A stretch of 63,562 bases of DNA, counting the filler. It is 4 parts of 4 records of this genome, joined end to end, with 100 filler letters (N's around TTAATTAATTAA, not from the genome) between each part and the next. Parts side by side here need not be neighbours in the genome. Positions count along the whole stretch, not along the records: positions 7,851 to 34,087 come from DRR723986_5788; 3 more parts are not named here. One strand, 5' to 3'. The notes below the pieces were generated by a model. That model ran no database searches. It was not told the origin of the DNA and saw only the letters and a list, made by a program, of their open reading frames with translations. Both the position numbers and the translations under genes were made by a program. Below, piece by piece: positions 9,922-28,920 of the stretch. Position 1 is the stretch's first letter, and every line of letters begins with the position of its first letter.

Positions 9922-10356
9922 ATGACGGAAATCAAGATTCAGCGCGACGGTGAGTCCCCACGTGGAAAAGGTAAAGGCAGTTTGCCACCCGTTCTGGTAG
10001 GCCTTAGTTATCCACTGGCACTGCAGCTACATACCACGGTTGGACCCGAAATAGCAGGGCAGCGCGAAGTTTCATTGCAGATGTTCCTTGGCAGCCTGCC
10101 TGATGCACAAAAAATCAATTTGGGGGGCACACTGTTAACAGTTAATGGCGCGGCCGTAGCCGTACCGAGCTCGACAATTCCTTATAGTCCCGAGCAGACT
10201 CCATCAAACGGCTTTTTTGCACATGAGTTAACACCGAATCTAACGATTCAGTTGCTCGATAGTTCCGGCGATTTGTCCGTGATTGTGGATGGAGACATCA
10301 CGACCAAGTGGACAATTGGCGCAATCGATATGGAATTGCTTGATCCACCGTATTAA
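9922..10356 (+). CDS. Small uncharacterised beta-rich protein (module A)
   Basis: GGAG RBS before ATG 9922; 144 aa; contains GFFAH, also present in 28405-28920. Confidence 0.7.
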   Translation: MTEIKIQRDGESPRGKGKGSLPPVLVGLSYPLALQLHTTVGPEIAGQREVSLQMFLGSLPDAQKINLGGTLLTVNGAAVAVPSSTIPYSPEQTPSNGFFAHELTPNLTIQLLDSSGDLSVIVDGDITTKWTIGAIDMELLDPPY

Positions 10357-10448
10357 ACACAAAACTTGCTGAAAATTATCAATTGATATACGTGCACCAG
10401 CAGCAATGCTAATTACTAATCTTTTCACTCCAATTCTGGGAGAAAATT

Positions 10449-11522
10449 ATGTGTACACGCGTATTTGACAATCGCAGAAATACGATTCTGACGACCGGCC
10501 GCAACATGGACTGGGCGGAACTGTTTAACAACGTGCTCTATACCTTCTACCGTGGGCTGGAACGCAAGGGCCTGGCCGGCGACGAGGCGACCAGCCGCAA
10601 AGCGGTCACCTGGACTTCACAATATGACAGCGTCGTTGTTACCGTTGGTCCAGAAGTGGCCCCAGCTGCCGCCGACGGCATGAATTCGGCCGGCCTGGTT
10701 TCAAACGTCCTTTACCTTGCCGGTAGTACTTTTGCCGATGAAGACCAGTATCCGGGCCGCGGTGGCTTGAGCATATTGCGATGGGTGCAATATGTACTCG
10801 ATAATTTTGCGACGGTAGATGAAGTCGTGGCAGCTTTTGACAACGGCCCCAACAGCCCAGTACTAATCAGCGCGTCAGTTCCGGATGAGGGCTCAGAATC
10901 CAAACCGGCAGAGCTTCACATGTCAGTTTCCGATAAACACGGCAACTCGGCGATTATTGAAGTGTTTAAGGGTGAGTACCTGGTTCATTCTTCGCAGGAC
11001 TACCGCGTAATGACAAATGATCCGAACTTCGATAAACAATTGCAGTTAAACGAATACTGGCGCTGGCAGTGGAACAAGCTCGAAAACTCTCATACTTCTG
11101 AGACGCTGCCGGGCTCTACTTTTTCACCGGATAGATTTGCGCGGGCAGACTACTTTATTAACAATGTGCGCACACCGGCTACGCCAACTCTCGCAGTCGC
11201 GCAGATGTACTCGATCATTCGCAATGCTTCCGTGCCTTTGGGATATCACCTGGGCGGCGACGCCGACAACAATGAACCGAATATTGCGCAGACCTTGTGG
11301 TCGACTGTCGCTGTGCATGAACAGCAGCAATATTTCTTTGGTGATGTAGCCAGTCCGAATGTGTTCTGGACGGATCTACAGAGTTTTTTCAGCGTTGAAG
11401 ACGGCGAAGTCAAACCCGGTAAGTCGATGTCTCTGCATTTGCAAAAGGACGGTGAATACCAGCATTATGCCGGTTGCGTCAACGGCGACTATGATGTAGC
11501 ACCAGATCCATTTGCGGTCTAA
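10449..11522 (+). CDS. Linear amide C-N hydrolase, choloylglycine hydrolase/penicillin V acylase family (Ntn hydrolase)
   Basis: Starts M-C-T-R (Cys nucleophile); GRNMDW, DGMNSAGL, VMTNDP and SPDRFARA motifs; no signal peptide. Confidence 0.93.
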   Translation: MCTRVFDNRRNTILTTGRNMDWAELFNNVLYTFYRGLERKGLAGDEATSRKAVTWTSQYDSVVVTVGPEVAPAAADGMNSAGLVSNVLYLAGSTFADEDQYPGRGGLSILRWVQYVLDNFATVDEVVAAFDNGPNSPVLISASVPDEGSESKPAELHMSVSDKHGNSAIIEVFKGEYLVHSSQDYRVMTNDPNFDKQLQLNEYWRWQWNKLENSHTSETLPGSTFSPDRFARADYFINNVRTPATPTLAVAQMYSIIRNASVPLGYHLGGDADNNEPNIAQTLWSTVAVHEQQQYFFGDVASPNVFWTDLQSFFSVEDGEVKPGKSMSLHLQKDGEYQHYAGCVNGDYDVAPDPFAV

Positions 11523-11552
11523 ACCAGCCGGCCCGGCAATTCCCTTTTTCAT

Positions 11553-11590
11553 CTAAGTGTCTTCCTGCTCAGGAGTGGGAAGACACTTGG
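11553..11590 (+). terminator. Stem-loop after the Ntn hydrolase
   Basis: AAGTGTCTTCC...GGAAGACACTT inverted repeat. Confidence 0.6.
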
Positions 11591-12172
11591 TTTACAATTG
11601 GATTGTCGACGAAGCAGGCTATTACGGCGAAACCAGCACGATTACATGTCGGCAATAGAATTCGATAGTTTCAGAGTTACCGTAGACCAAAATATTCACT
11701 TGAGCAGTTGCCGGGCTCAACTGCATTAAGCTTGAGACTGACCAACAAACAAAACCCTCAAACCGCAAGCCGCAAGTGGCAGCGAAAGCGGCGCTGCAAT
11801 CAATAGGCGCAGTCCAGCACACCAACACGCCTCTCACCGAATGCAGTAGTTTTACCGTAGTACATTCGTTTGCCAATCGAAGCATATTGGAACATGCACA
11901 AAAGGCATAGCCCCAATGCGAGTTAATTTTGCGCCATGTGGCAAGGTTTTTTGAGCATAGGTACAACAGTCAGAACAATCACAAACACATGAATTGCCGG
12001 TTAGAACTAAATGGAAAGTAGCTACACAATACTGTATTGAATTGGCCTCGAATGTGAGTCCACCTCTCGATTGTACCCACTAGATGTTGTAGGCATCGGC
12101 TTACAGGGAGTGTTGTAAATGTTAAAGTCAAGGTGTTCTATGAATAGAACAACAGCAGTTTTGAAAAGTTTT

Positions 12173-13560: not shown

Positions 13561-13574
13561 TTTTCAGTGCTGTA

Positions 13575-15623
13575 TTAAACGGCGGGGCTCTTCACCGCAG
13601 CTGCACCGACAAATATCACAAGCCCATCACCACCAGGGTTGGCCTCAAAATCGACGTAGGCGGACGCCTTCCAGTTGTTAATCGCCCAGAGGTTGCCAAC
13701 TCGATCGATGACTGATCCGGTCATCCTGGTTAATGGCTCATAAGAATCCGGATTGCCGCTACCATAGGTTCCATAACCGTTCGCAAGTGTAACCGGAGAA
13801 CCACCCGTCGGCAGAGTTAACATTCTGGGCTCGTCGGGATGTTCGGCGGAAACTACGGTGACACCGAATTTACCGCGTACATCTTTTTCGCCCGGCTCAG
13901 CCGGTGATTCGTGCACGGGAAAGAAGTTGGCGACATAGATTTGATCGTTCGCATCAAACACCATGCCCCAGGGGCGGCCAATATTCGTGGAGTAACTGGC
14001 CAGCACTTCTGTTAAGTCGTTATTGAGCCTGTAGACGCAGCCTTTTGCGACTGCCGCAACAAAGACTTCCCCGCGCGAATTAACAGCAACCTGCCGAAAA
14101 GCCTCATAGTCGTCGGGTGACCATTGTCTGATTTGTTCCAGAAAGGGCTTCGCAGAATTGTCTGTATTAATACACAACTTGACCAGTGCTGAGTTGGTCG
14201 CGGGCCGGGAGCCATCCTTGGCGGCACCTGCTCCGGCATTTGAGACAAATGCATTTCCGTCAGCGTCAAAGTCCAAATCAAAGGAGCAGTTAAACGGGTT
14301 GGGGTTTTCAAACTCATATGTTAATATTTCTGACGCATGCGGTGCACGTGAGCCGTCGAAGTTAAGATATACTACAATAGCGCTGTTAACATCTGGGAAG
14401 TCGTAAACAGTAGCATTGGATGGTGCCATTGGCTGCTGTGTACCCCAGGATGTAATCCACAGATTGCCATGTTTGTCGTATTTCATGCCCTGCGCGCGAC
14501 TAATTTTTTCGAAGTAACCTTCCTGCGGGCTTAAAGCTTCCCCGCTACTGTTAAAAGCCGAAATACTTCCATGTTGCGGATTGTACTGTTTAGGCCCCCA
14601 ACCAAAATTCCCGAACAAAATCCGCGATCCATCGGCATTCGCACAGACGCCAAAACCACCGCCAAGCAGGCCTCCGCCAAAGACTGGCGAGAAATCAGCC
14701 GGTGAGCCATCGGGATTCAATACTACCGCAAAACTGCCTGAGTTCGGTGTGCCCTGCGTGACGTTGTTTGTCAGCCACAGGCGATCGTTTTCATCAAAAG
14801 CAATGTATCCAGGGCCGGAAATCAGGAAGTTCTGCGCACCGGATCGATTAACTTTAACCGTCAGCGACCATTGATTTGGCACCGGACTCCACTTCTGGCG
14901 CTGTTTATGCGAATACATGTCTGGCAGCGACGGGCTATAGAGTTGCGGCAGAGCACGTATTAATTCATAAATCTGTTCCACATTGGTCCAAGGATTTTTA
15001 CACATTGACCAAATTGCACCAAAACTGCTCGAATACTCAGCGCGCTTCTGACCGCTGCCTTTTGTCAAACTCAGAAGTGACTTATACACTTGAGCATCGG
15101 TCATGCAGTAATGCAGCAGGTTTGCCAGAAAGTTAAACATTGGAAAACTATTGGTTTCGAGCCCGTTGGGAGAAGTAGAAATTACCGGTGAGAGCGCGCC
15201 GGCTGCATGCATGAAATTATCGCGCATGCCCAACATCAAACCCATTTCCCGGTCAGTCGCATTAATTCCAATGTGCAATTGTTCGTTGATACGCGTGAAC
15301 TGCGCAAAACAGAATGTCGCCGCAATGGTTTCGCGCTCGCCTATAGAAACACGGTGGTCCTTGCGTTTGAATACGGACAAAAACAAGATGTTACGATCCT
15401 TGAGTTCAACCGGCCCGGCCCCGGCATCATATGCGCGTACATGCATCACAATGTACAGATAGCCATAGGGTGCGCTGTCTATATCTAGTTCAAAATTCGG
15501 AGAATGGACCGTGTGGCTGCTTAGGTGTACGGCACGGCCGGCACGCATTCCACAAACGTGGACAAGAGCTTCAGCTGGAACAAGACCGGATGCTAACTTT
15601 GTGCTACATTGATACAAGGGCAT
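13575..15623 (-). CDS. NHL-repeat-like beta-propeller protein
   Basis: Repeated IAFDENDRLWLTN, YDKHGNLWITS, FDADGNAFVSN, PWGMVFDANDQIYVAN and IDRVGNLWAIN motifs. Confidence 0.78.
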   Translation of the reverse strand: MPLYQCSTKLASGLVPAEALVHVCGMRAGRAVHLSSHTVHSPNFELDIDSAPYGYLYIVMHVRAYDAGAGPVELKDRNILFLSVFKRKDHRVSIGERETIAATFCFAQFTRINEQLHIGINATDREMGLMLGMRDNFMHAAGALSPVISTSPNGLETNSFPMFNFLANLLHYCMTDAQVYKSLLSLTKGSGQKRAEYSSSFGAIWSMCKNPWTNVEQIYELIRALPQLYSPSLPDMYSHKQRQKWSPVPNQWSLTVKVNRSGAQNFLISGPGYIAFDENDRLWLTNNVTQGTPNSGSFAVVLNPDGSPADFSPVFGGGLLGGGFGVCANADGSRILFGNFGWGPKQYNPQHGSISAFNSSGEALSPQEGYFEKISRAQGMKYDKHGNLWITSWGTQQPMAPSNATVYDFPDVNSAIVVYLNFDGSRAPHASEILTYEFENPNPFNCSFDLDFDADGNAFVSNAGAGAAKDGSRPATNSALVKLCINTDNSAKPFLEQIRQWSPDDYEAFRQVAVNSRGEVFVAAVAKGCVYRLNNDLTEVLASYSTNIGRPWGMVFDANDQIYVANFFPVHESPAEPGEKDVRGKFGVTVVSAEHPDEPRMLTLPTGGSPVTLANGYGTYGSGNPDSYEPLTRMTGSVIDRVGNLWAINNWKASAYVDFEANPGGDGLVIFVGAAAVKSPAV

Positions 15624-15824: not shown

Positions 15825-16493
15825 ATGCTAACAAACGAGGTTTTCAAGGCAGCAGTGGGTGGTGAGCTGGAAACAGTTAAAGCGGCTCTGGACGGCGGCT
15901 TTGACGTAAATTCTATTGCCAAAAACGGCATGAGCCTTTTAATTTGTACAATCTGGGAACAAGGCAATTTGCCGCTGGTCAAACTCTTATTGGAGAGAGG
16001 TGCTGATATCAACTACCGCCAGCCCTCTAATCAATGGACATCACTGTGTTATGCAGCAATCAACGGGCACTCCGAAGTACTGCACTTCCTTTTTGAAAAT
16101 GGGGCTGGACTGGACGAGGCCGCTGGAGACTGGAAAGCTCTGATGTTCGCGGTTCAATATCGCAGTCACGCCACTGTCAGAATTCTCCTGGAACACAGCG
16201 CATCCATAAATATCCGCGACGACAAAGGACAAACACCTCTGATTCGAGCTGCCAAGAATAGTGACGTTGAAATGGTAAAGACCCTCCTGGCACACACACC
16301 TGATGTTAATATGCAGGATCTTAGCGGCAATACCGCTCTGATGTATGCAGCGACCAAGGCAAAACCCGACAATGTTAAGAGTATCCTACTGGCCGGCGCA
16401 AATACGGATTTGTTAAACAAGGATGCTAAGACGGCACTGGATCTTGCGCAGGCGAAAAAGAAAAAAGCGAACGTCGCTCTTTTGATGGCATAA
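15825..16493 (+). CDS. Ankyrin-repeat protein (paralog of 30246-30914)
   Basis: GQTPLIRAA, GNTALMYAA and LLERGADIN ankyrin motifs; 222 aa. Confidence 0.93.
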   Translation: MLTNEVFKAAVGGELETVKAALDGGFDVNSIAKNGMSLLICTIWEQGNLPLVKLLLERGADINYRQPSNQWTSLCYAAINGHSEVLHFLFENGAGLDEAAGDWKALMFAVQYRSHATVRILLEHSASINIRDDKGQTPLIRAAKNSDVEMVKTLLAHTPDVNMQDLSGNTALMYAATKAKPDNVKSILLAGANTDLLNKDAKTALDLAQAKKKKANVALLMA

Positions 16494-16756
16494 ACCACAA
16501 GTTTCTCTCGCTCCAACATCCGGAATTGAATAGTGGTGATCCTCAGAGCAAAGCTCACCTGATGCGGTATTCCAATCCAGACTTTGATTGCAGAAACACC
16601 ATCATAAAAGCCTGATGTACCCACCGAGATATTCAGGTCTCAGTTAGATATTCGGCCTCAGGGAAATGGAGCGCATTGGAACCCTGCGTAGTCTAATTGC
16701 GTTTGCGCCACATTGTCGCTTGGCAAACTCGGCCGAGGTGGCTATTTTGGAACCGG

Positions 16757-16798
16757 CACAGAATGTTGTGTACAGAATGTTATGCACAGAATGTTGCC
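16757..16798. repeat. 14-bp direct repeat x3 upstream of the peroxiredoxin
   Basis: CACAGAATGTTGTG / TACAGAATGTTATG / CACAGAATGTTGCC. Confidence 0.8.
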
Positions 16799-16837
16799 GT
16801 CGATTGCACTTCTAACACAAAATCTGGTAATTCAATT

Positions 16838-17473
16838 ATGGCTATCCGCTTAGGTGATACTGCTCCTGACTTCACAGCTGAGACATCTCAGGGACCTGTC
16901 AATTTTCACGAATGGCTCGGCGATAGCTGGGGCATCCTGTTCTCACACCCTGCCGATTATACGCCAGTTTGCACAACTGAGCTGGGTACGGTCTCCAAGA
17001 TCTTACCTGACCTACAGTCGCGCAACGTTAAACCGATTGCTGTCAGTGTTGACCCAGTTGAATCACATCATGGCTGGATCAAAGACATCAATGAAACGCA
17101 GGATACCACGGTCAATTATCCAATTATTGCCGATCCGGATCGCGTTGTAGCCGACAAATACGACATGATTCACCCAAATGAGCTAAACAACATGACGGTG
17201 CGCTCGGTATTCATTATTGGCCCCGACAAAAAAGTTAAGTTGACCTTGACCTATCCAGCATCAACTGGTCGCAACTTTAACGAAATCCTGCGCGTGATTG
17301 ACTCACTGCAGTTGACAGCCAACTATTCAGTAGCTACTCCGGCAAACTGGAAGGACGGCGAGGATTGTATAATCGCTCCTTCGGTACCTGACGCTGACGT
17401 TCCAGCCAAATTCCCCAAGGGCTCAACCACAATCAAGCCTTACCTGCGCACGACACCGCAGCCGAATAAATAA
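16838..17473 (+). CDS. 1-Cys peroxiredoxin (Prx6 family)
   Basis: LFSHPADYTPVCTTE, YPASTGRNF, VATPANW. Start placed at ATG 16838. Confidence 0.95.
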   Translation: MAIRLGDTAPDFTAETSQGPVNFHEWLGDSWGILFSHPADYTPVCTTELGTVSKILPDLQSRNVKPIAVSVDPVESHHGWIKDINETQDTTVNYPIIADPDRVVADKYDMIHPNELNNMTVRSVFIIGPDKKVKLTLTYPASTGRNFNEILRVIDSLQLTANYSVATPANWKDGEDCIIAPSVPDADVPAKFPKGSTTIKPYLRTTPQPNK

Positions 17474-17596
17474 TAGTAGGCCGGTTGACACTACATAATT
17501 GATGGGACTGCTGTCGTGACAACAAGCGACGCAGTCCCATTTTTGGTTGTGCTAGTGTGTTCGAGCAATTCCGTGTTAACTTACTGGCTGCTCCCT

Positions 17597-17703
17597 TTGA
17601 CTTCTGATTTGAGCGCTTGCGCCCCTTCACCTGCGGTTTGTGGCTGGCTTTTTGAGCTTTTGTTTGTTATTGAGAGTAGATTCTAAAGCAGTTGAGATAG
17701 TCC
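17597..17703 (+). repeat. Dispersed intergenic repeat, copy 1
   Basis: TTGACTT..TTTGAGCGCTTGCGCCCC..TCACCT...GTGGCTGGCTT...TTGTTTGTT...GCAGTTGAG, similar to 24697-24834(-), 33547-33615(+) and 11716-11770(-). Confidence 0.65.
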
Positions 17704-17778
17704 GCAACCCATGGATCAAATACACCAACACTCTACCTAACATCAAATGAACACCAAAGTTTGCATCCAGTTTGGCTA

Positions 17779-19305
17779 TCAGATTTCCAGCTCGCTTAGG
17801 TCTTTGCCTTTATACTTAGAATATGTATCGTGAAGTGGCTTCCCGAGTAGATTTGCAAGCACCCAATACTGAATTTCATGAAACAGGAGATATCTCGAAT
17901 TCACCTCCTGGAACTTCGCATCCCGATTGACACGCCACAAGTCTCGGTATGTCAATTCCAAACAAGAATTGTCCGCACAATTTGACAATTTCTTGAGTTT
18001 GCTCAGAAGTTCTTTATATAACTCCTTGTACATGTCTTTCTCGCGGAGGGCGCGAATAGTGGAACGGATAGAATTATGTATGTCTTGTGCCTTCAATTCA
18101 TACATTAGCACACAGCGTAAAACTTTGGCAACAGTCTGGATATCAATGCGGACTTCGCTGGACTTTTCATTAATTATCATCTGAGTCCATTCATTGCTCT
18201 TTGACCAGTTGCCATTCAGGAAAAATACACAGGCGTATAAATACCTGATAGATGTCGTTCGCGCAGGGTTGATCCCATTTTTGTACTTCTCCAATTGAAG
18301 CCGAAAGACTTCTTCTTTACGTATGACCTCGCTAAATTTTGCGGTTTGTAAAGCATACAGTAGCGCAAGATAAACTCTATTCTGTACCAACTCTGCCTCG
18401 TCGTCCACGTTTATTGCGGATACACTATTTAATGCCTCAATTGCTGAGGCCATTTCCTTATAGCGTTTTAACCTGGCACATGCAGTCGCAAAATTGGAAA
18501 GTGCCTTGGCATAGCCCATTGGGTCTCGATCTCTGCGATCGTCATGTTGCTCCCAAAGTCCAATTAACTTTTTGCGGTGGCTGTAAACTTTATCCGACTC
18601 TCCATTAAACTGATGTATCATGGCATGACAAGAATGGTACATACAGGCATTGCGAAAGTCCATCGATTTTTTGCGGGTAATTTTTCGTATCTCACTTAAG
18701 AGTGTTGCTAACTTTTTCTTTGCATCTGGATCGGGTCCCGTTGGGTTACCCCGTAAAATGCTAAAAATCTGTTCGCGAATAATTGAGAATTCAGTCTGCA
18801 ATTGCAAATTACCTTTTGCGTTGCGGAGTTCCTCAACCAAGCTTTGAACTTTTGCCTCTGTATTTGGTTCATAGTTGCCCTGATAGATTGAAAGTTCAAG
18901 CTCAATCACCATAATTTGCGCCAGATAATTTTCGCCTTTGCCTACCTTTTCACGCAACTTCCTAACTTTGGTTCTGGCTTGTTTGTACATGCCTTTGTTA
19001 CGTAAGAACCCGACATTGTGTAGCTCACGTTGCAGAATCAGCGACTCCTTTTTGCTGGATTCGTACATCCACATAGCCAGAAGAATTTGATCCTTGAGTT
19101 CAGTCTGAAAGGCGGATATGTCTTGAACTTCCGGAAAAGCCTCTACAATTTTGTCATAGTCGTACTCTGGCATTGCATCCAAAAGTTTGTATAGTCTGTA
19201 GTATTTTGGATCGGCCTTATGCCGCTCTGCAAAGATTGCGAAGTAGCGTTTTTCCAGTGTCTCGAGCGAATGAACAAGCGTATAAGCATCATGTACTTTG
19301 GGCAT
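17779..19305 (-). CDS. Large helical TPR-like protein, paralog B
   Basis: Start placed at ATG 19305 (MPKVHDAYTLVHSLETLEKRYF); IGLWEQH, RIDIQ..MYEL, EIQYWVLA. Confidence 0.8.
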   Translation of the reverse strand: MPKVHDAYTLVHSLETLEKRYFAIFAERHKADPKYYRLYKLLDAMPEYDYDKIVEAFPEVQDISAFQTELKDQILLAMWMYESSKKESLILQRELHNVGFLRNKGMYKQARTKVRKLREKVGKGENYLAQIMVIELELSIYQGNYEPNTEAKVQSLVEELRNAKGNLQLQTEFSIIREQIFSILRGNPTGPDPDAKKKLATLLSEIRKITRKKSMDFRNACMYHSCHAMIHQFNGESDKVYSHRKKLIGLWEQHDDRRDRDPMGYAKALSNFATACARLKRYKEMASAIEALNSVSAINVDDEAELVQNRVYLALLYALQTAKFSEVIRKEEVFRLQLEKYKNGINPARTTSIRYLYACVFFLNGNWSKSNEWTQMIINEKSSEVRIDIQTVAKVLRCVLMYELKAQDIHNSIRSTIRALREKDMYKELYKELLSKLKKLSNCADNSCLELTYRDLWRVNRDAKFQEVNSRYLLFHEIQYWVLANLLGKPLHDTYSKYKGKDLSELEI

Positions 19306-19799
19306 ATCTACTGCGACCTTAAATCCAGAAGAATCAACGGTTTGATTCCAATTTAGCAAGGTCCGGATACATTTTGCAAAAATCCCCCCTGTTTAATATT
19401 TGTCATTCCACGCATAATTACTTGTTTTTCGGGTAAATTACTGACTATTTCCTGGTTCATCACAGAGAATCAGAACCCATTATTAGCACTCACAGGCCCC
19501 AACAAACAAGCTACTCACTAGGCTTTACACGTTGGTATTACTGACCTCTGCAGCACGCATCTAGCCCAATTCCCTGCCAAACAGACCACAAATTCAATTA
19601 TCATAATACCCTTCGTTCGGATTTCCAGTTTTTCGTTTTTTTTGGTTTCCCGATCATAGACCTACTTGAGTAAATTGATATAGTTGACTGAGTCATCTCT
19701 TGCTCTTGATTGAATTATACAGCGCCAGGCTGTAGCCGCGCTTGCATATTCATTTATGCCACCTTAGGTCTCACTCAACCATTAACAGAGGAAAAAACC

Positions 19800-20201
19800 A
19801 TGTCCAACAACTCTTATCTGTTCTACCCAAAAGAGTTTTACGACTTGACACAATACACATTTGAAATTAACCATACCGAGATCGTAGTGCTTAACAGAAA
19901 GTCAGGTGAGCAGCACGTCTGTTTTAGCCTGATTGGGTCCCCGTATGGAATTCAAGTTAAACACAACTTTCTACATGTTGGTCAGTTGTGTATTTGTGGG
20001 CCCAACTCCACTCTTACACTAAATGAATCAGTTAGTAAGATCCATGTCAAAGAATTAGAGAACATGAACTATAGTTTATGCGTTCATTTCTCCTGTGATC
20101 AATCCAACAGTTGGGAGACTGAAGTCCCCGAGACTCCCATGCGGTTTTCCAGACGTGGGGAAACTCTGATAGTCGAACTGCCGCAAAACAATTCAGTTTA
20201 A
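19800..20201 (+). CDS. Small uncharacterised beta-rich protein B1
   Basis: GAGG RBS before ATG 19800; YGIQVKHNFLHVGQ aligns with LGLHAINGYLCIGK of 27932-28330. Confidence 0.75.
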   Translation: MSNNSYLFYPKEFYDLTQYTFEINHTEIVVLNRKSGEQHVCFSLIGSPYGIQVKHNFLHVGQLCICGPNSTLTLNESVSKIHVKELENMNYSLCVHFSCDQSNSWETEVPETPMRFSRRGETLIVELPQNNSV

Positions 20202-20231
20202 CGCTTCTTAAACTCTTCCGGAGACAAATTG

Positions 20232-20786
20232 ATGCCCTATTCTTGTTCAAGCATTGAAGACCTGTCCGAGCTGCTATTTGATGTAGTCACACACAATTTA
20301 GTGTTCTACTATGAAAGAGGTACTGGCGGTCAGGACGATATCTTCAGACTTCAAGTATATGACTACAACAGCATATTGCAGTTTGAGTGTGATATTGATG
20401 GTATTTTTGGTGAGAGCCTGTGCCTTGATGTAACTGGGCCTGACAACGACGGGAAGCACCATCTGCGTGTTTCTTCGACGGAAACATTTCAATTGCCAAG
20501 TAGCTATTTTCAAAAGGAGATTGACTTCAGCAAACCTTATGCAAGTGTTAAGGTTGAGAAAAGCGACCTGGATGACAACTTTAATTTTGTGGGTGTTGAA
20601 GATATTCGCTACGACTCGGTTGCAACACAGTTCATCCCACTCAAAAACCATCGCTACAGCCTCAAACAATGCCGCATCTACCTTAGTCGCAGGGACAATA
20701 TCCTTGAGATTCAATGCGCTTGTGTACCGCCAAATTGCGGTTCAACCCCAAACCCGTGTTATACCTGTGTGATTACAACAGTTTAA
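20232..20786 (+). CDS. Small uncharacterised beta-rich protein B2 with a Cys-rich tail
   Basis: GGAG RBS; NLVFYY, DIDG, FVGVEDIR and DNILEI match C2 (28405-28920). Confidence 0.75.
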   Translation: MPYSCSSIEDLSELLFDVVTHNLVFYYERGTGGQDDIFRLQVYDYNSILQFECDIDGIFGESLCLDVTGPDNDGKHHLRVSSTETFQLPSSYFQKEIDFSKPYASVKVEKSDLDDNFNFVGVEDIRYDSVATQFIPLKNHRYSLKQCRIYLSRRDNILEIQCACVPPNCGSTPNPCYTCVITTV

Positions 20787-20821
20787 CAACACTCCCAATT
20801 ATCACTATCAAAGGAAATACT

Positions 20822-22447
20822 ATGTCAACTCGCACACTTCCCAGCACTTACGGTGAAATTAAAGCGATTGTGTTTAACTCTCCAATTGAATATGATCAAA
20901 TTGACAAAAATGGAAAACCTCCCGAACGCGTAGCGGCACGTTATAATGACGTCATCGAAACTTTTAAAATGGCAAATCCAAAATGGGACATTGAAGTTAT
21001 CATCCTTGGAAAAAAGCCATCCAAGAGAATGTTCTTTGCATCCCACTCTACAATTCCAATGTATAAAATTCAGGAACTGTGGATTAAAACAATTGCTGAC
21101 TTTGAGAGAATTCTACTGGATCTCTATTCCGCAGTTTTACCACCGAGTGTTATTAGTTTGGTCCACATCGTTTTGGAAGATCACCCTGACGATATAGATG
21201 ATGATGAAGTAGATGATGTGGTAGATGATGTAGTAGATGATCTACTTGATGACAACCTTGAGATGTCTCCTACTGAGATGGCAGTATCGCCTGCATTTCA
21301 CAAACCTCCATCACGCCAACCGGCCAACCAGCCAACCAGATATGTTTTTGAGTCGATTCAGGATCCATTTATCATCAAACCGAACGAAAACATTGGTCGA
21401 GTGAACAGTTTGGGTATCGCAATCTCAGAACATTTTCGACCATACGGTGTGCCCGAAAAACTTCTAAAGAAGCTTATTAGTGAGCTAAACAACTCAAAAA
21501 TTCCAACGAGTAGTGGAAATACTCTGAGTTTCATTTTTGAACGATTTGACGGCCACCTTCACGGAGGTAACATCCTGATTAGTAAGAATTTTGCTCTGAT
21601 TGGAACCAATACGCTGGCAAAAAATCTTAGTATTCTTGACAATCAAGATGATCCCGAGTTTGCAACAGCGGATGATGTCACCGCAGCGTTTAAGCATAAC
21701 CTGAACCTATCGGCAGTCCACTGGATTGGTGCTGAGAGCCAAAATAAGCTGGCGTTTGAATATGACAAGAAAAATCAAGACTTGGGACTATTAAGACAAC
21801 TGATTGAGCATCTGGATATGTTTATCACGCTTGGCGGTCCCCTTGACGAGAAAGAGTCTCAAGAAATCGTATTCCTTGCGACAATTAGCAAAAGAAACAG
21901 TATTGGAGTCCCAGACGACCTTTTCACAAGAATCAAGAACTACTTAAAGGAACAACGGGACAAACTGAAAAACATTAAGACAAAATCTAATCAAGACAAG
22001 TTTAAGATTATTCCCATCCCAATAATTTTGCACATGGTTGGTGAAAAACTTTGGTACTCCTACAACAACTGTATACTGGAAGTCTACCTTGATGACAAGG
22101 ACAAGTTGGTGCGTAAGGCCTACATTCCCCAGTACACAGCTCCAAAGGGCAGCTCCGCTGAAGTAGAGGAGATATTCAACAAAGCCAACGAGAAAGCTTG
22201 TAGAAGATTTAAGAGTGCTGGATTTAGTCTGTTTACATGCAGCACAATGTTCGACGCCCGTTCGCGAAATAACGGATCCCTACACTGTATTTGCAGTTTT
22301 GTACCGCACTCCCAATTAAGAACCGAAGGGCAACAACATCGCCCGAACTCGCATTACGGCCCAACTACAGTTTCGGACTTGCGATTTTGTAAGCATTCGA
22401 AACAGACTGACTTAACACTTCTTTCCCAACCATCAATGAATATTTGA
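20822..22447 (+). CDS. Pentein-fold guanidino-modifying enzyme (PAD/agmatine deiminase/amidinotransferase-like), module B
   Basis: STYGEIK N-terminus, SIQD, GGNILI, HLDMF, YNNC, GSLHCI give the Asp/His/Asp/Cys catalytic set. Start placed at ATG 20822 after AAGGA. Confidence 0.8.
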   Translation: MSTRTLPSTYGEIKAIVFNSPIEYDQIDKNGKPPERVAARYNDVIETFKMANPKWDIEVIILGKKPSKRMFFASHSTIPMYKIQELWIKTIADFERILLDLYSAVLPPSVISLVHIVLEDHPDDIDDDEVDDVVDDVVDDLLDDNLEMSPTEMAVSPAFHKPPSRQPANQPTRYVFESIQDPFIIKPNENIGRVNSLGIAISEHFRPYGVPEKLLKKLISELNNSKIPTSSGNTLSFIFERFDGHLHGGNILISKNFALIGTNTLAKNLSILDNQDDPEFATADDVTAAFKHNLNLSAVHWIGAESQNKLAFEYDKKNQDLGLLRQLIEHLDMFITLGGPLDEKESQEIVFLATISKRNSIGVPDDLFTRIKNYLKEQRDKLKNIKTKSNQDKFKIIPIPIILHMVGEKLWYSYNNCILEVYLDDKDKLVRKAYIPQYTAPKGSSAEVEEIFNKANEKACRRFKSAGFSLFTCSTMFDARSRNNGSLHCICSFVPHSQLRTEGQQHRPNSHYGPTTVSDLRFCKHSKQTDLTLLSQPSMNI

Positions 22448-22457
22448 AGTGAATACG

Positions 22458-23372
22458 ATGCCTAAAAAACTCGGAATACTCGTGATTCATGGAATCGGCA
22501 AACAGTCAGATGGTTTCTCCAATGCCTTGCGTTCCAATGTAAATGAACATCTGCGTGATCTGAATGTCAATACATCCGAAATTGCCTGGCAGGAGGCGCA
22601 ATGGGCAGATGTCCTTTCCGGAGTGGAAACGGAACTTATGGACGATTTGACCAAGGATAACCCTCTACGGTACATGGACTTTCGGAATTTTGTCGTGCAT
22701 GCATTAGGAGATGCCATTGCCTACCAACAAGTGCCCGGTGGCCGCGAAAAAATCGATGTGTACGATGCCATCCACAGGCAGATCCAAACATCCCTATTAC
22801 GTCTTAGGGGCAAAATCCGCGATTCAAATCCGGCACAAGACGTAGAAGCTCCGCTTATAATTATTGCGGAGTCGCTTGGCTGCCACATAATCTCCAACTA
22901 TATCTGGGATATGCAACGAGCCATTGGACAAGAAAGTGCCGGAAAAGAAGTTCACCCACCGCTCTGCTTTGACCTTCCCGACAATGCTTTTGAAAGAATG
23001 CAAACCGTATCAGCAATCATTATGAATGGATGTAACCTGCCTCTGTTTACTTTGGCCTACAACGACCGCCAGCCGATTAACTTTCCGCCGGAGCAATTGC
23101 GTACTTTTTTCCCGGGCAGCATAGACGATGAAGACTTCAACAGCGCAATTCGTTGGAATAACTATTACGATCCCGATGACATTCTGGCTTATCCCTTAAA
23201 ACCGTTAAGCAAGAAGTATCACGATACGGTTCACAGAGACGTTCGGGTTAACGTTGGCTCTATAGTGACCTCTGCGACGCCACTATCGCATACAAAGTAC
23301 TGGACGGATGACGACTATACGGAACCGGCAGCCAAGATGATCTATAGGGTCTGGCGCTTGCTAGGCCCCTAA
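22458..23372 (+). CDS. Alpha/beta-hydrolase-fold protein
   Basis: VIHGIG oxyanion motif, AESLG elbow, NYYDPDDILAYPL, SHTKYW. Confidence 0.78.
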   Translation: MPKKLGILVIHGIGKQSDGFSNALRSNVNEHLRDLNVNTSEIAWQEAQWADVLSGVETELMDDLTKDNPLRYMDFRNFVVHALGDAIAYQQVPGGREKIDVYDAIHRQIQTSLLRLRGKIRDSNPAQDVEAPLIIIAESLGCHIISNYIWDMQRAIGQESAGKEVHPPLCFDLPDNAFERMQTVSAIIMNGCNLPLFTLAYNDRQPINFPPEQLRTFFPGSIDDEDFNSAIRWNNYYDPDDILAYPLKPLSKKYHDTVHRDVRVNVGSIVTSATPLSHTKYWTDDDYTEPAAKMIYRVWRLLGP

Positions 23373-23447
23373 GACCAGTTAGTGAAAACACTACGCTAAC
23401 CAGTAGGACACATGATTGTTCTTTGACAACTCACACAAACGATTTCG

Positions 23448-23482
23448 AGGCTTAAAACACGTACTGCCAGTGTTTTAAGCCT
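23448..23482 (+). terminator. Stem-loop after module B
   Basis: AGGCTTAAAACAC...GTGTTTTAAGCCT perfect inverted repeat. Confidence 0.6.
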
Positions 23483-23576
23483 TGAGGCAACCTGCATTTT
23501 CTTTGCCGCACAATATATGATTTTCTGAAAGAAACCGGATTGCGGTCTTGCACATTTCTCTAGACGGAGTTAGACT

Positions 23577-24650
23577 ATGCGTACACTTTTCTGTTTATTT
23601 CTATCTTGCTTTTTGTTAACATCCAACTCACTTAGCCAAGGTGTGTTTCGAACTCATAAAACCAAGTCTGTCCACAAAAACTCGCGGCTTGCCAAACAAC
23701 TCCAAAAAGAACTTGACAGCCTGCAACTTCTTCGGCAGCAAGGCATAACAGCACTGTCGGCGGGATTAGCACCTTCTGAGCTGAGGTACAAAGAGAATCC
23801 ACCTGCATCCGAAACCGATGCAGATGAACCGCTATCGTTCTTTGAAGTTTTGGCTGAGATTGATCAATCGATCGCAGAACGCGAACGCGAATTGGAGGGT
23901 ATTTCCAATACCACCAGCGGCGATGGTGACGGCACTGGAACCAGCAGCGATACTAAGCCCGAAACATCGGGTTTTGCGGGAAGCAGTGGTTTTGTGATTT
24001 CCAAAAACGGTAAAGTGACCCCAACAGTATTGGGCTCGGCTAATTTCGATATCTCGACCAATTCGAATATTTCGATTGCTGTTGGTGGACTACCGGCAAT
24101 TGCCGACACAGCGTCCGACCAAGTCGGTGAGAACTTGTTTCTGCCGGATCAGAGCACCTATAGTTTTGCGTTGAGTTATTCACATCTACTTGATTCGCTG
24201 ATTGACTGGAAACAGAATTTTGGCTTAACAGTTGGCACGCGCCTTATGGGCAAAAGTCTGCAAAGGCTAAAACCTGATAGTATTGAAACTGCAATCCAAC
24301 AGACAGACTTTGGCGTTATCGATCTCCAAGTGGCACTGGATTACATTCTGATTAATACGGACGCCAAGAAGTTCAGTCTATTTGGCGCTGTCAATTATCT
24401 AAGTATTGATCAGAATGAAGACAGATTCACAGAATTTTTTGGTTCCGATGCTGAGCGTAATTTCATTTATCCAAGTTTTGGATTCCGTGTACAGGTCTCC
24501 AGCGAATCGGCCGGCATGTTCAGTGGAATGTTTATCCAGGGAGAGTACTTCCACTATACAGACACAGTCCACACAATCGAGGAAACAAAAGTTAACGATG
24601 GAATTTTTTATCTCCGCATCGGTGTATCCGGAGATTTTTGGCGCTGGTAA
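23577..24650 (+). CDS. Secreted, putative outer-membrane beta-barrel protein
   Basis: Signal peptide, coiled N-terminal part, alternating beta-strands, C-terminal aromatic residues (FYLRIGVSGDFWRW). Confidence 0.6.
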   Translation: MRTLFCLFLSCFLLTSNSLSQGVFRTHKTKSVHKNSRLAKQLQKELDSLQLLRQQGITALSAGLAPSELRYKENPPASETDADEPLSFFEVLAEIDQSIAERERELEGISNTTSGDGDGTGTSSDTKPETSGFAGSSGFVISKNGKVTPTVLGSANFDISTNSNISIAVGGLPAIADTASDQVGENLFLPDQSTYSFALSYSHLLDSLIDWKQNFGLTVGTRLMGKSLQRLKPDSIETAIQQTDFGVIDLQVALDYILINTDAKKFSLFGAVNYLSIDQNEDRFTEFFGSDAERNFIYPSFGFRVQVSSESAGMFSGMFIQGEYFHYTDTVHTIEETKVNDGIFYLRIGVSGDFWRW

Positions 24651-24696
24651 TCCAGTGCTAGAAGTAGAGACTCAAGGCTGTTAACCCGCAATCCCA

Positions 24697-24834
24697 GAGA
24701 CTGCCTCAAATGTTCTAGGCTTCCGGCACAACAACAAACAAGAAGATCCAGCAAGCCACTCAAACTAAGCTGCTGAAGCGACTGGGGCGAAATTACTGAG
24801 GTGATCGGGGCGAAGCGCTCAAACCTCAAGTCAA
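24697..24834 (-). repeat. Dispersed intergenic repeat, copy 2
   Basis: Reverse complement reads TTGACTTGAGGTTTGAGCGCTTCGCCCCGATCACCT...GAGTGGCTTGCT...TTCTTGTTTGTT...ACATTTGAGGCAGTC. Confidence 0.65.
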
Positions 24835-24895
24835 GAACCCGAAATGTTAAGTCAGCCAAAAAATGAACTGATTATATGCGCAATTTTCAACGATC

Positions 24896-25237
24896 CTAGT
24901 TCCAGACGAATGTGTGCCCCAACAGCATACTCACAAAGTTATACGCGAGTACAAGTAAAACAAACACAATAAACACGAGGTCCAGGATTATGTATGGCCA
25001 GAAGGCCAGTTTTTCGCGGAATGGGACGTACAACATTACTCCGACTGCCAAGACGATTAACTCCAGAGCGCTGTGAAAATAGTGAATCTGAATGTTAACT
25101 GAGCGACTGGCGGGATAAAGCCCAACCATAATCCCAATGCATTTGGACAGGACAATCACAGTCACAGTTATCAAAACTCTTGTTCCCGGAGTCAGTTCCG
25201 GTTTTTGTGATTTTTGAACCTCGTGCTCTGACTGCAT
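24896..25237 (-). CDS. Small 3-TM membrane protein (paralog of 25502-25837)
   Basis: Three hydrophobic segments; I.Y, Y..FR, ILD.V, (Y/F)N and C-terminal H...W shared with the neighbour. Confidence 0.72.
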   Translation of the reverse strand: MQSEHEVQKSQKPELTPGTRVLITVTVIVLSKCIGIMVGLYPASRSVNIQIHYFHSALELIVLAVGVMLYVPFREKLAFWPYIILDLVFIVFVLLVLAYNFVSMLLGHTFVWN

Positions 25238-25501
25238 GTTTATCCCCCTACCAGAGCCGCACCAATTTTATCTTGGGATTCTACTCCGATATCAACACCG
25301 CAAATTGAGGTAAAAATGCCTTATCCGGGGCGTTTTCCCTCACCATCTATTGTATCGTACAGGCAAGCTGAATTTCGGTTCAAATGCAGATGTCCGCGCA
25401 GCAAAACATGCATGATCGGAATTGACTGGTCGTGCGGGTCACCAAAATGAAGACACAGTTAAATGTATGAATAAATCCAGGCACAAGCGAATAGAAAACA
25501 A

Positions 25502-25837
25502 TCAGCTCCATGCCTGAGAGTGCAGGATCAGCAGCAAAATAATGTTGAAGGCAGTAAACAGTAGACCAAAGAGAACGTACACAATGTCTAAAATCAGGAA
25601 AGTCGATCCCTTAACACTATTGCGAAAGGAAAGGTAGAAATTAATACTGACAAATAGTCCAATTTGCTCTGCAACACAGGAGACATACTGAATTTTTGCC
25701 GTAATTGCTTCGTTGAAGGACAATAAATAAAGCAGGCCGAATAGTGATAATTTCCAAAATAATATTCCGACAACGATTAATAGTGTCACGCTTCCCGGTG
25801 ACCCTTCAGATTGTGCCGGCAGCTGCACTTGTTCCAT
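25502..25837 (-). CDS. Small 3-TM membrane protein (paralog of 24896-25237)
   Basis: Same motifs as its neighbour; GGAG RBS upstream on the minus strand. Confidence 0.72.
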   Translation of the reverse strand: MEQVQLPAQSEGSPGSVTLLIVVGILFWKLSLFGLLYLLSFNEAITAKIQYVSCVAEQIGLFVSINFYLSFRNSVKGSTFLILDIVYVLFGLLFTAFNIILLLILHSQAWS

Positions 25838-26010
25838 ATTTGTCTCCCCTGTTCCTGAACTTTATGTGATCTTGTAATCTGAACCCAGCGCCGAAACTTG
25901 AACAAAGTACTATAGCTCAATCCGTAAGCAAATATAACAATAGTACGCTGTATACGAGTTAAAAAAATGATTCTCAGAATAAATTTCAGTCGTGGAGCCA
26001 CGCAAGAGTT

Positions 26011-27546
26011 TTAAGCACCGCGCTTGGCGTTGTATTCAACAAAAACTTCCAGCGTTGGACGGTTTTGCACAATGGACTCCAGCCAAAACAATAACTCACG
26101 CATGCCAAGAAAGTGCTGGTCGCGCGGGCCGGCCGCGATAGCACGTATGTTAAAGCAGAGGCGCTCGTAGACCGTGAACTTTTCGGCTTCGCTGACGGCT
26201 TTTGACAGAAGTTTAAGTTCGTCGACAATCACCTTCTCATACTCAACACTCTTTTTGTTGCGTTTGAGTGAAGCCAAAATCCGGCGTATTAACATGTCGA
26301 GGGAGTCCTCACTATCCAGCTCCACATGCACTATTGCAAAAACAACCTGGGCAATCATTTGAATGTCCTTGCGCGCATCTGTTTTAAAATCATTCATGAT
26401 GCGCAGCAGCCACTGAAGTGATGTTTGGTAGTCCTCCAGAATAAAATGTATCACAGCCAGATTGTAAAATATTGTGAGCAAACGCGACTGCACCATGTGA
26501 TCGCCAAACTTGCGTAGACCGCTTTCAATCCACTCCAGGCGCGTGAGCACTGGCTCCAGCTCACAACTGTTGAGTGCATTAAGCAGCAACAGATGTGCTT
26601 CATTCTGGAATTTTTCAACGTCCTGCGCAAAATTCTGTGGTTTGAGGTTGTGAATTTTGGCGACAACTTCGTTAATCGTTTTGGTGTCAATCGGGTCACA
26701 CAACATGCAGGAGTTGGCATAGTTTGCCAAAGACTTGCTGAAGCCCATGAACCCGTCACTTAAACGCTCGGGATTGGATTCCCAGAGTTCTACTATTTTG
26801 CGGCGAAAGCGCGTGGTCTCCTCATGTCGATTGTGCAGCCGGTGGTAACGCGCCATAATTGCGTAATAATAGCGCCGGCAGTCAAATGTAACCGCCAGAG
26901 ATTCATTCTGTAGCAGGGGTGACTTGAGAAGTTCTTGCAGCGCTGCCTTACTCTCGGCACTGGGTTGTTTATACGATTGGCTGGAGTGCAGTAACATGCG
27001 GTCGTGCAGGGTTTGATACTGCCGTACAAGCTGATATTCCTGCAGGACTTTCTGGCTTTCGTCCAGCGAAGCATTCATAGCCTTGACGATGCCCGGTGGC
27101 TGCCGTTTCTGCAGGATGCGCCGCTGCTTTTCAAGTATCTCTATCAGTGCTGTGTGGTAGTCAATTTCGCGTGCCATTTTAGCCGCGTGCACCAGGGTCT
27201 TGGCAGCCTGGCCGAGCAGCCCCAGTTCGATAAGGCATTCGGCATTGCTCAGCTGTCGGTCCACGGCCTCCTGCTGTGAGTTGCCGGCACGGCGGATACG
27301 CAGGCTCTCCAGAATTTGATCATAGAGGCGCATTTTATGTGAGGGGAAGTTGCGTACCGAGTAGTGCTTTTCCAGTTTGGCTTTGGCCGCCGCCTCATCA
27401 TAGACGTCCTGTGTACGGATAATGTCAAACAAATCAACAACCAAACCTTCGATTCCACGCTTGCGCAGCTGCAGTTTGAAGTAGATAATGTCGTGTTTGG
27501 TGAGCGACTTTATCAGCTGATGTAAGTCAGTACTGGGGCTTTTCAT
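26011..27546 (-). CDS. Large helical TPR-like protein, paralog C
   Basis: Start placed at ATG 27546 (MKSPSTDLHQLIKSLTKHDIIYFK); VELWESN, RKDIQ..HVEL, ELLFWLES. Confidence 0.8.
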   Translation of the reverse strand: MKSPSTDLHQLIKSLTKHDIIYFKLQLRKRGIEGLVVDLFDIIRTQDVYDEAAAKAKLEKHYSVRNFPSHKMRLYDQILESLRIRRAGNSQQEAVDRQLSNAECLIELGLLGQAAKTLVHAAKMAREIDYHTALIEILEKQRRILQKRQPPGIVKAMNASLDESQKVLQEYQLVRQYQTLHDRMLLHSSQSYKQPSAESKAALQELLKSPLLQNESLAVTFDCRRYYYAIMARYHRLHNRHEETTRFRRKIVELWESNPERLSDGFMGFSKSLANYANSCMLCDPIDTKTINEVVAKIHNLKPQNFAQDVEKFQNEAHLLLLNALNSCELEPVLTRLEWIESGLRKFGDHMVQSRLLTIFYNLAVIHFILEDYQTSLQWLLRIMNDFKTDARKDIQMIAQVVFAIVHVELDSEDSLDMLIRRILASLKRNKKSVEYEKVIVDELKLLSKAVSEAEKFTVYERLCFNIRAIAAGPRDQHFLGMRELLFWLESIVQNRPTLEVFVEYNAKRGA

Positions 27547-27931
27547 GTATGAACTTCTATTCGTATCTATGCTTATCGGGCCTTCAAAACACGAAAAATT
27601 ATTTCCGTAGTCGAGTAATATATTCAATCCATATTTCTGACAAACACTTGCACGCATTTCAATACACATTTAGTGAAAGTGCTCGTAATGAAACAACCGA
27701 TTTTGGCTTATTTTCGGCACTTTTGGCATTCTACGTACGTACAGCAGAATCATTAGATTCAGTCAATTGCTTCAAATCCTGGAACGGTTACCAATGTCAT
27801 TTTATGAGATTTATGGCTTGCTTGTTTCTGCACTGATGATCTAGATTGGGCACCACAGACCCGGGACATCCAGCCCCTGCCTTCTACGCGCTGGCATCTC
27901 CCACTCCTCCATCTCAAAAACTTGGCCGGCC

Positions 27932-28330
27932 GTGGAAAGGGACGAATTCATACATCGAGCGGAGTTCGACAATCAAAGCTACGATGCATTTGTGCAGGGC
28001 AGTTCTCTTATCATCAGCAACAACTATACGCATGTTCAGGCACTACAAATTGACATGGACAATCACGTATTGGGTCTGCATGCCATCAATGGCTATCTGT
28101 GCATTGGAAAAGTTCTTTTCCGTGGCAAACACGCCTGTACCGTTTTACAGCGCCCCAGGGTACTCTCCGGCCACTTAACATTTCAGGCACCCGAAAAGGG
28201 CTGGGTCCTCCAGGTCTATGGCCATGACATGCAAGGGCATATTCTTCAGTTGCGATTTGAATTAACACAGTTGATCGTGGAGGTTGAAGTCGGCGCATCG
28301 ACCGTCACGATCCGTTCAAGCAAACTGTGA
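27932..28330 (+). CDS. Small uncharacterised beta-rich protein C1
   Basis: GTG start, 132 aa; similar length, position and motif to B1. Confidence 0.68.
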   Translation: MERDEFIHRAEFDNQSYDAFVQGSSLIISNNYTHVQALQIDMDNHVLGLHAINGYLCIGKVLFRGKHACTVLQRPRVLSGHLTFQAPEKGWVLQVYGHDMQGHILQLRFELTQLIVEVEVGASTVTIRSSKL

Positions 28331-28404
28331 ATCGATAAAGACAAAGCGTCTGCAGACGCACCCATAAATACGTTTTAACAATACTTTCATCTCAGGAGCT
28401 AACG

Positions 28405-28920
28405 ATGACTGGTGTAGACGAGTTTTTACTAAAAAACATCCGACTGTATTTTGATGAAGACGCCAAGTTGGTCAAAGTGCGTGACTGCCCGAACGGTGCA
28501 GAAACTGACTACGATCTGGACGGCACGTGTGTTGGCGTAACAATTGAAAACGACAAGCTGTTTATTGGTCCAGGCAAGACGCTGGATTCGCCGATTTCAC
28601 TTCCAACACAGATTCCAATTCACCGCAATCACGTGCAGGGCTTTTTTGCACATTTGATTGACTCCAACGCCAGTTCACAGGGCACGTCCGAGGACATCGT
28701 CGACGTAGAGTTTGTCGGTGCGGGTGATGACCGTGACGAGTGTGACCTGATAACGACCGGCAAACCGCGCGATATGTTCCGCTTCCGACTTTCTGAGTTA
28801 ACGATTCAGATGAAAATTGTTAACAGCGGCGGCGATACAATCCTGCAGATTTGGTATGAGAGCGATGCAAGCACCGGGCTTGATCACATGGTAACAACCA
28901 ATCTGGATGCAATCCACTAA
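28405..28920 (+). CDS. Small uncharacterised beta-rich protein C2
   Basis: AGGAG RBS; NIRLYF, DLDG, FVGAGDDR and DTILQI match B2. Confidence 0.78.
   Translation: MTGVDEFLLKNIRLYFDEDAKLVKVRDCPNGAETDYDLDGTCVGVTIENDKLFIGPGKTLDSPISLPTQIPIHRNHVQGFFAHLIDSNASSQGTSEDIVDVEFVGAGDDRDECDLITTGKPRDMFRFRLSELTIQMKIVNSGGDTILQIWYESDASTGLDHMVTTNLDAIH

Follow-up and report, generated by a model that had tools for sequence, protein, structure and literature searches.

A rare family of small, predicted all-beta proteins in two subfamilies encoded upstream of pentein-like cysteine hydrolases

Introduction

The known enzymes of the PF04371 set, to which agmatine deiminase and the Porphyromonas-type peptidyl-arginine deiminase (PAD) belong, act on free agmatine or on secreted or host proteins, and we know of none with a co-encoded small protein partner. 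A bacterial deiminase does act on a genetically encoded polypeptide in the citrulassin-type, citrulline-bearing ribosomal peptides; the substrates there are short leader-core peptides, and to our knowledge the deiminase is not encoded beside the precursor. Nor are we aware of any dedicated enzyme-substrate pair for arginine deimination inside bacterial cells. Here we describe a family of small proteins from a stretch of DNA of 63,562 nucleotides (hereafter the window), which consists of parts of four genome records joined end to end with filler. Between 8 and 31 kb of the window lie three gene rows of the same design, modules A, B and C. Modules B and C encode a pair of small proteins, which we call P1 and P2, ahead of a putative pentein-type cysteine hydrolase, while module A carries a single small protein and an N-terminal nucleophile (Ntn) hydrolase.

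Each row combines a gene on the - strand for a tetratricopeptide-repeat (TPR) protein of about 530-550 amino acids (aa) with a diverging row of + strand genes, in which one or two small open reading frames (ORFs) come first and the hydrolase follows. The TPR proteins are distantly related to BT2802 (RusR) from the ribose locus of Bacteroides thetaiotaomicron. According to a preprint (bioRxiv 10.1101/574913), BT2802 is a putative regulator in which DNA-binding motifs are predicted, and its gene lies immediately upstream of the operon that it presumably regulates. The arrangement in the window is similar, although the genes beside the TPR genes are not sugar-utilisation genes as in the ribose locus, and a regulatory role is only putative for BT2802 itself.

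Results

Two subfamilies of one family

The + strand rows open with five small ORFs: one in module A (9922..10356, 144 aa), B1 (19800..20201, 133 aa) and B2 (20232..20786, 184 aa) in module B, and C1 (27932..28330, 132 aa) and C2 (28405..28920, 171 aa) in module C. Their starts (ATG 9922, ATG 19800, ATG 20232, GTG 27932 and ATG 28405) are backed by orthologue alignments, and in each case they are the first + strand genes opposite the - strand TPR gene, just as an initial annotation of the window had it. That annotation, made from the letters of the sequence, had further grouped all five as one divergent, beta-rich family on the basis of motifs aligned by eye. In an all-against-all BLASTP comparison of the five nothing is significant, the best E-value being 0.084 for a 14-residue match between the module A protein and C2 around the pentapeptide GFFAH. 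The motifs alone could thus be due to chance, and relatives from other genomes were needed.

Such relatives exist in two genomes, G152 and G153, both of which have a relative of C2 and carry a complete module C in the same order, TPR gene, P1, P2, enzyme and ankyrin gene. Identities to the window proteins are 45-46% for C1 and 47-49% for C2. Searching the two genomes with an alignment of the enzymes yielded more, paralogous modules, in which a P1 gene of about 135 codons and a P2 gene of about 175 codons lie between the TPR gene and the enzyme. Here, BLASTP links B2 to the P2 protein of locus L012 (1e-17), C2 to other P2 proteins (7e-37 and 5e-4) and C1 to a P1 protein (1e-7).

Profiles of P1 and P2 that were built without any window sequence were then run on all 232 window ORFs of at least 60 aa. 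The P1 profile matches C1 (2.5e-24) and B1 (1e-10), and the P2 profile matches C2 (1.4e-33), B2 (7.3e-26) and also B1 (2.5e-5). No ORF beyond these four is matched, and the module A protein gives no hit at E <= 10. Compared with each other by hhalign, the P1 (17 sequences) and P2 (31-32 sequences) profiles align over 127-129 colinear columns with a probability of 97.9-98.0% and E-values of 2.9e-13 and 5.1e-13, while controls with reversed sequences stay at E >= 0.012. An early comparison with sub-profiles of 2-5 sequences had reached 1.4e-3, within the range of the reversed controls; the link became decisive only with the addition of further members. The P2 hidden Markov model also matches P1 proteins of other genomes directly (6e-7 to 2e-3 among 352 ORFs), one of them nearly over its full length.

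In the profile alignment, the segment NHVLGLHAINGYLCIGK of C1 (28061-28111) is laid on GTCVGVTIENDKLFIGP of C2 (28522-28572), and GSPYGIQVKHNFLHVGQ of B1 (19935-19985) falls into the same columns of the P1 alignment as this predicted hairpin of C1, including the only invariant P1 residue, Gly59 of C1. The pattern that the initial annotation had seen in B1, C1 and C2 therefore holds once relatives are added, and so do the five ordered motifs common to B2 and C2, all of which occupy the same alignment columns. With high confidence, B1 and C1 (P1, ~133 aa) and B2 and C2 (P2, ~175 aa) represent paralogous subfamilies of one undescribed family.

That the family had gone unrecognised is borne out by the databases. 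None of the five small proteins belongs to a Pfam, NCBIfam, PADLOC or PHROGs family, no Pfam family matches more than two of the 31 P2 and 17 P1 members, and PDB sequence searches return no consistent match. Reading the N-termini by eye, we found no signal peptide in the five proteins; P1 and P2 apparently are cytoplasmic. The P2 clade that comprises B2 and its relatives (L012, P0015, P0018 and P0024) has a variable C-terminal tail rich in Cys, Pro and Gly; B2, for example, has five Cys among its final 23 residues. No such tail occurs in the clade of C2. The tail is reminiscent of the core of a modified peptide.

Could these ORFs be chance frames or non-functional remnants? Five proteins that lack a database family, one of which (B2) has no match among 5.8 billion proteins, might suggest so. 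Yet the genes are kept in four other genomes in the same order, and confident AlphaFold2 models arise from shallow alignments (see below). The ratio of nonsynonymous to synonymous changes (pN/pS) is 0.07-0.16 for orthologue pairs of P1 and P2 and 0.14 for the pentein-like enzyme, and across the values considered it does not leave the range of 0.07-0.25. P1 and P2 are real genes under purifying selection, and the notion of spurious frames has practically no chance of being correct.

Predicted fold

AlphaFold2 predicts all-beta structures for both C1 (12 strands, predicted local distance difference test (pLDDT) 91.8, predicted template-modelling score (pTM) 0.85, 9 sequences in the alignment) and C2 (13 strands, pLDDT 83.1, pTM 0.79, 23 sequences), in agreement with the beta-rich character proposed earlier; by homology to these models, we infer the same for B1 and B2. 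In the register of the profile alignment, the two models have the same strand or non-strand state at 88 of 120 positions, compared with 35-65% at shifted registers.

A Foldseek comparison of the models with the PDB returned nothing at E <= 1e-3 and no convincing neighbour. Ribosomal protein uL6 fills the top rows for C1 and the majority of those for C2, with TM-scores of only 0.18-0.29, and we set this resemblance aside as unconvincing. The structural matches of C1 cover one half each (residues 1-61 or 62-132) and consist of small beta-sandwich domains, namely the N-terminal domain of vaccinia A46 (5ezu), alpha-crystallin/HSP20 and CS domains; the first 57 residues of C2 match the same domains. 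In comparisons of half-profiles, the C-terminal half of P1 resembles the N-terminal half of P2 (3e-5) and the two halves of P1 resemble each other (2e-4), with controls at >= 0.016. Together, the half-wise structural matches and the profile signal between halves suggest that a beta unit of about 60 residues was likely duplicated in tandem to give rise to the family. Judging by the models and the databases searched, no known family or solved fold appears to accommodate P1 and P2, whose predicted fold may possibly be new.

Conserved modules and the enzyme encoded after P2

To describe the gene neighbourhood we counted 23 modules, the two in the window and 21 further loci (L025-L045), with flanks of 1.5 kb. 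A separate P1 ORF precedes P2 in 17 of them, and P2 stands without one in L031, L037, L038, L039, L042 and L045. The initial claim that the small proteins come as a pair beside penteins is thus right for modules B and C and for most relatives, though not universally, 6 of the 23 modules having P2 only. L032, one of the loci with a pair, has a P1 that keeps P2-like motifs and matches the P2 profile nearly over its full length, and judged by its sequence it looks intermediate between the subfamilies.

A divergent BT2802-like TPR gene is found in 19 of the 23 modules; none is visible in the 1.5-kb flanks of L031, L035, L042 and L045. In the window, the TPR genes lie on the - strand at 8004..9629 (module A, 541 aa, NF058569 E 1.9e-41), 17779..19359 (module B, 526 aa, E 6.2e-24) and 26011..27669 (module C, 552 aa, E 7.6e-23). 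They are paralogous to each other and, in the case of module B, also to TPR genes of related loci; the one of module C shares 54% identity with its counterparts in L002 and L003. All three proteins, including the putative regulator of module B, cover the NF058569 (BT2802 family) model over its full length, with 142.7, 84.8 and 81.3 bits against a cut-off of 550; by this measure they are distant relatives of BT2802, below the NCBIfam membership level.

The gene after P2 encodes a pentein-like enzyme in 19 of the 23 modules. In the window, these enzymes are encoded on the + strand at 20714..22447 (module B, a 577-aa ORF whose likely start by alignment is ATG 20822, Met37) and at 28941..30197 (module C, 418 aa, 42% identical to its orthologues). 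The two are 25% identical and have the C-terminal sequence GSLHC in common; its catalytic-type Cys, which is C401 in the enzyme of module C, is present in nine of nine sequences of the enzyme family. Such a C-terminal G-x-x-[HR]-C with an invariant Cys is also found in agmatine deiminase and in the Porphyromonas-type PAD. Further similarity to the PF04371 enzymes lies in the consensus blocks H-x-D-M-x-I-T-L-G-G and W-x-Q-D, which we take to be typical of agmatine deiminases, and in weak profile matches to the PDB entries 2cmu and 3hvm (agmatine deiminase / putative PAD, both E 0.002) and 6b2w (E 0.048). In an Atlas search with the module C enzyme, 22 of the 30 nearest clusters are in the PF04371 set, with a score of 0.93. 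The enzyme would accordingly be a pentein-type cysteine hydrolase resembling agmatine or peptidyl-arginine deiminase, and would be expected to hydrolyse guanidino groups. What sets the module enzymes apart from the PF04371 enzymes is that they are always preceded by P2.

The remaining modules vary the enzyme. L045 (2026-3330, G172:C117) has a short P2 of 145 aa directly followed by a bona fide PAD (PF03068 4e-29, PF08527 6.5e-28); this PAD has the three-domain architecture of the animal type and is a second, unrelated deiminase family linked to P2. In L032 (653-3454, G163:C56), a subtilase gene (PF00082 1e-12) comes after P1 and P2, and the orthologous loci L037 and L038 have no enzyme gene next to P2.

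An arginine in P2 that covaries with the deiminase

P2 proteins contain a near-invariant motif, G-x-x-D-x-R, that is absent from P1. It corresponds to G121, D124 and R126 of B2 (20592-20609) and to G105-x-x-D108-x-R110 of C2 (28717-28734), and its Arg is present in 28 of 31 P2 sequences. In the C2 model, the motif lies at the end of strand 98-108, ahead of the loop that is modelled with the lowest confidence (111-120, mean pLDDT 54). The Arg is found in all 20 P2 proteins encoded next to a pentein or PAD, and it is replaced in all three modules that lack a deiminase: by Ser in the subtilase-linked L032, and by Leu in L037/L038 (P0018), where in addition Glu takes the place of Asp. P0025, another P2 protein, has Ser at the position of the motif Arg.

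This covariation with the deiminase is the main basis for the mechanism that we propose. The P1-P2 pair, or sometimes P2 alone, is encoded directly upstream of the pentein-type cysteine hydrolase, and the row is presumably regulated by the divergent TPR protein. P2 would be the cognate protein partner of the enzyme and would present the motif Arg, at the end of a strand and before a flexible loop, to the active site of the deiminase. There, the Arg would be deiminated, with P2 as a dedicated substrate, which is the version we prefer, or it would act as a pseudo-substrate. In this view P1, a degenerate paralogue without the motif, would probably form a pair with P2. We regard the presentation of the Arg to the active site as tentative, somewhat less likely to be right than wrong.

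The same observations may be read in two other ways. In the first, P1 and P2 would be accessory subunits of the enzyme, such as a scaffold, specificity adaptor or folding helper, with the Gly, Asp and Arg of the motif playing structural roles instead of being presented. The tight and conserved linkage to the enzyme fits this well, a paralogous pair suggests a pseudo-symmetric heterodimer, and the conserved Asp could be salt-bridged to the Arg that comes two residues later. However, such a role leaves unexplained that precisely the modules without a deiminase have lost the Arg, and it has to accommodate the occurrence of P2 with unrelated enzyme classes; we consider it unlikely. In the second, P2, together with P1, would be an inhibitor or immunity-type partner that silences a potentially harmful cytoplasmic deiminase or protease in the manner of an antitoxin, its Arg plugging the active site without turnover. 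In keeping with this, only short gaps separate the small gene from the enzyme gene directly downstream, the Arg covaries with the presence of a deiminase, and the enzyme can switch to a subtilase or PAD while P2 is kept. But PADLOC finds nothing, P1 and P2 are devoid of DNA-binding antitoxin features, a TPR regulator and further genes (ankyrin and others without a family) are atypical of toxin-antitoxin pairs, and nothing points to toxicity of the enzyme. Inhibition is, on this evidence, the slightly less plausible of two improbable roles.

The small protein of module A

In module A, the small ORF is followed by an Ntn hydrolase of the choloylglycine hydrolase family (10449..11522, + strand, Pfam CBAH 2.6e-38), and the initial annotation regarded its product as a single-copy member of the same family as P1 and P2. 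In favour of one family of five, the protein occupies the same position, being the first gene divergent from a BT2802-like TPR gene, as do its distant relatives, and it has the pentapeptide GFFAH in common with C2. Its orthologues (40-46% identity) occur in G152 and G153 (L023 and L024) beside an orthologous TPR gene (47% identical), and they set it apart from P1 and P2 in several respects. At the position of GFFAH they read GFVAN, and the proposed link to C2 is not confirmed. A profile of six module A-type sequences, compared with P1 and P2, gives E-values of 0.24-0.29, equal to those of reversed controls; profile alignment is thus significant between P1 and P2 and insignificant between either of them and the module A protein, which their profiles also miss among the window ORFs. 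Nor are the orthologues encoded beside an Ntn hydrolase: the module A enzyme has no BLASTP match in L023 and L024, and the stretch of L023 that was read contains no Ntn hydrolase gene. Hence, by sequence, the module A protein very likely belongs to a family apart from P1 and P2, and a single family of all five proteins is very improbable.

This second family is characterized by a conserved C-terminal motif, W-[TV]-I-G-x-x-D-[MI]-E-x-x-D-P-P. Distant members are found in L048 (1351-3325, G172:C117), L049 (138-2016) and L050 (1219-2672), where they are divergent from BT2802-like genes, as judged by the TPR N-terminal motif in translations. An Atlas search with the window protein returned only unnamed clusters, at scores of 0.90 or below. 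Because the module A profile stays at control level and GFFAH is not conserved, it would seem that two unrelated families of small proteins fill the same slot beside BT2802-like TPR genes.

What follows the small gene differs between these loci. Downstream of the orthologue in L023 (8339-11939, G152:C2) lies a gene for a 127-aa protein, and further genes there, judged solely from how their translations read, look like those for a cytosine-5 DNA methyltransferase, a Vsr-type endonuclease and a restriction endonuclease. The distant members precede a gene with an SpvB domain (Tc-toxin-like) about 1 kb downstream, an extracytoplasmic function (ECF) sigma factor, or a 365-aa protein of unknown type.

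Distribution

The P1/P2 family is extremely rare. In a word-indexed set of 5.8 billion proteins, C2 has only three relatives, B2 has no match, and the P1 alignment finds only two. An exhaustive HMMER search with the P2 alignment against 1.84 billion cluster representatives yielded 22 proteins (E <= 1e-3), six of them giant cadherin/Ig-repeat proteins. The latter owe their scores to sums of repeats of <=5.5 bits each and disappear with a deeper profile; with them discarded, about 16 true clusters are left. Among genomes, P2 was found in 4 of 201 of the order of G152, with 4, 5, 3 and 9 copies, in 3 of the 4 of its family, and in none of 400 others of its phylum. C2 as a query found no relative in 151 genomes of the family of G001, the genome that matches another part of the window (see below); G001 itself gave a chance-level match only. 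A scan of metagenomes with the pentein alignment returned three weak loci (L017-L019).

Genomic context and neighbouring genes

Positions 34188-57370 of the window are 96-99% identical to contig C5 of G001, whereas positions 1-34187, with all three modules, have no DNA match in G001 except for a 573-bp stretch of 66% identity inside a peroxiredoxin gene. The G+C content changes at about 8 kb (from 0.55 to 0.48) and at about 58 kb (from 0.45 to 0.63). The missing match in G001 and these steps place the modules in accessory DNA, which fits their patchy distribution; either the left 34 kb are a strain-specific island, or the shared block of 34188-57370 is itself mobile. A scan of the window for tRNA genes found none, and a DNA comparison of positions 1-8000 with G152, G153, G163 and G172 returned only one 72-base match. 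For the part of the window that includes 31281-32783, a Bacteroidota host is suggested by the 500-aa protein encoded there on the - strand, which carries a C-terminal sorting domain of type IX secretion (Por_Secre_tail, 5.7e-10).

Module C ends with a gene for an ankyrin-repeat protein (30246..30914, + strand, 222 aa, Pfam Ank_2 1e-38), which is kept after the pentein gene in L002 and L003 (49-52% identity). A paralogue with 48% identity to it, at 15825-16493, stands alone between the genes for an NHL-repeat protein (13575-15623) and a 1-Cys peroxiredoxin (16697-17473). In module B, the enzyme gene is followed on the + strand by genes for proteins of 307 aa (22449..23372) and 357 aa (23577..24650); Pfam, NCBIfam and PADLOC return no family for either of them with a meaningful E-value, and neither has a homologue in any related locus that was fetched. 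A scan of 17500-31300 for sigma-70 promoters and terminators gave fewer sites than shuffled sequences and is uninformative.

Discussion

What can be said about the role of P1 and P2? As an account of the whole, one family of cognate partners that offer an arginine to a deiminase, our explanation has in our estimate a probability of about 50%; the kinship of the four proteins is its firm part and the mechanism its weaker one. Several observations weigh against it. The enzymes are not recognised as penteins by Pfam (none at E <= 0.01) or by NCBIfam, and their profile matches to the PDB are weak (E 0.002). The signal for an internal repeat in P1 and P2 is modest (2e-4 to 3e-5), and some P2 genes have neither P1 nor a TPR gene within the 1.5-kb flank. 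The covariation of the Arg is based on two independent lineages without a deiminase, since L037 and L038 are orthologues, and related sequences are not independent of each other, which makes it suggestive, not a statistical proof. Finally, the role of the motif Arg could be structural and nothing else, for instance as the partner of the conserved Asp. The observation from which this work set out holds, and is new, for four of the five proteins and is wrong for the fifth, and what we propose about function is tentative.

If P2 is indeed a partner of the deiminase, its closest counterpart may be the citrulassin-type peptides, by analogy to which the module could employ a bacterial deiminase on a genetically encoded polypeptide. 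P2 differs from them in being, by prediction, a folded beta protein of some 170 residues. Full-text searches, as far as the texts were accessible, found no description of such a module, which does not prove its absence from the literature. Taking the idea further, the modules might be self-contained protein-citrullination switches: the RusR-like TPR protein would turn on the row, and the cytoplasmic pentein or PAD would convert the arginine of P2, a protein whose fold would be one absent from the PDB, to citrulline and thereby change the action of the P1-P2 complex, with the rare subtilase and Ser variants replacing deiminase and Arg. We hold this extension to be doubtful, more so than the presentation of the Arg itself.

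Only a handful of genomes, most of them uncultured, carry the P1/P2 family, which there accompanies a predicted deiminase of a kind otherwise known from free agmatine and from secreted or host proteins. If our explanation is true, the modules would represent a compact genetic system of one enzyme, one or two small partners and one target residue, which would allow the study of protein citrullination and of the way in which penteins recognise protein substrates.

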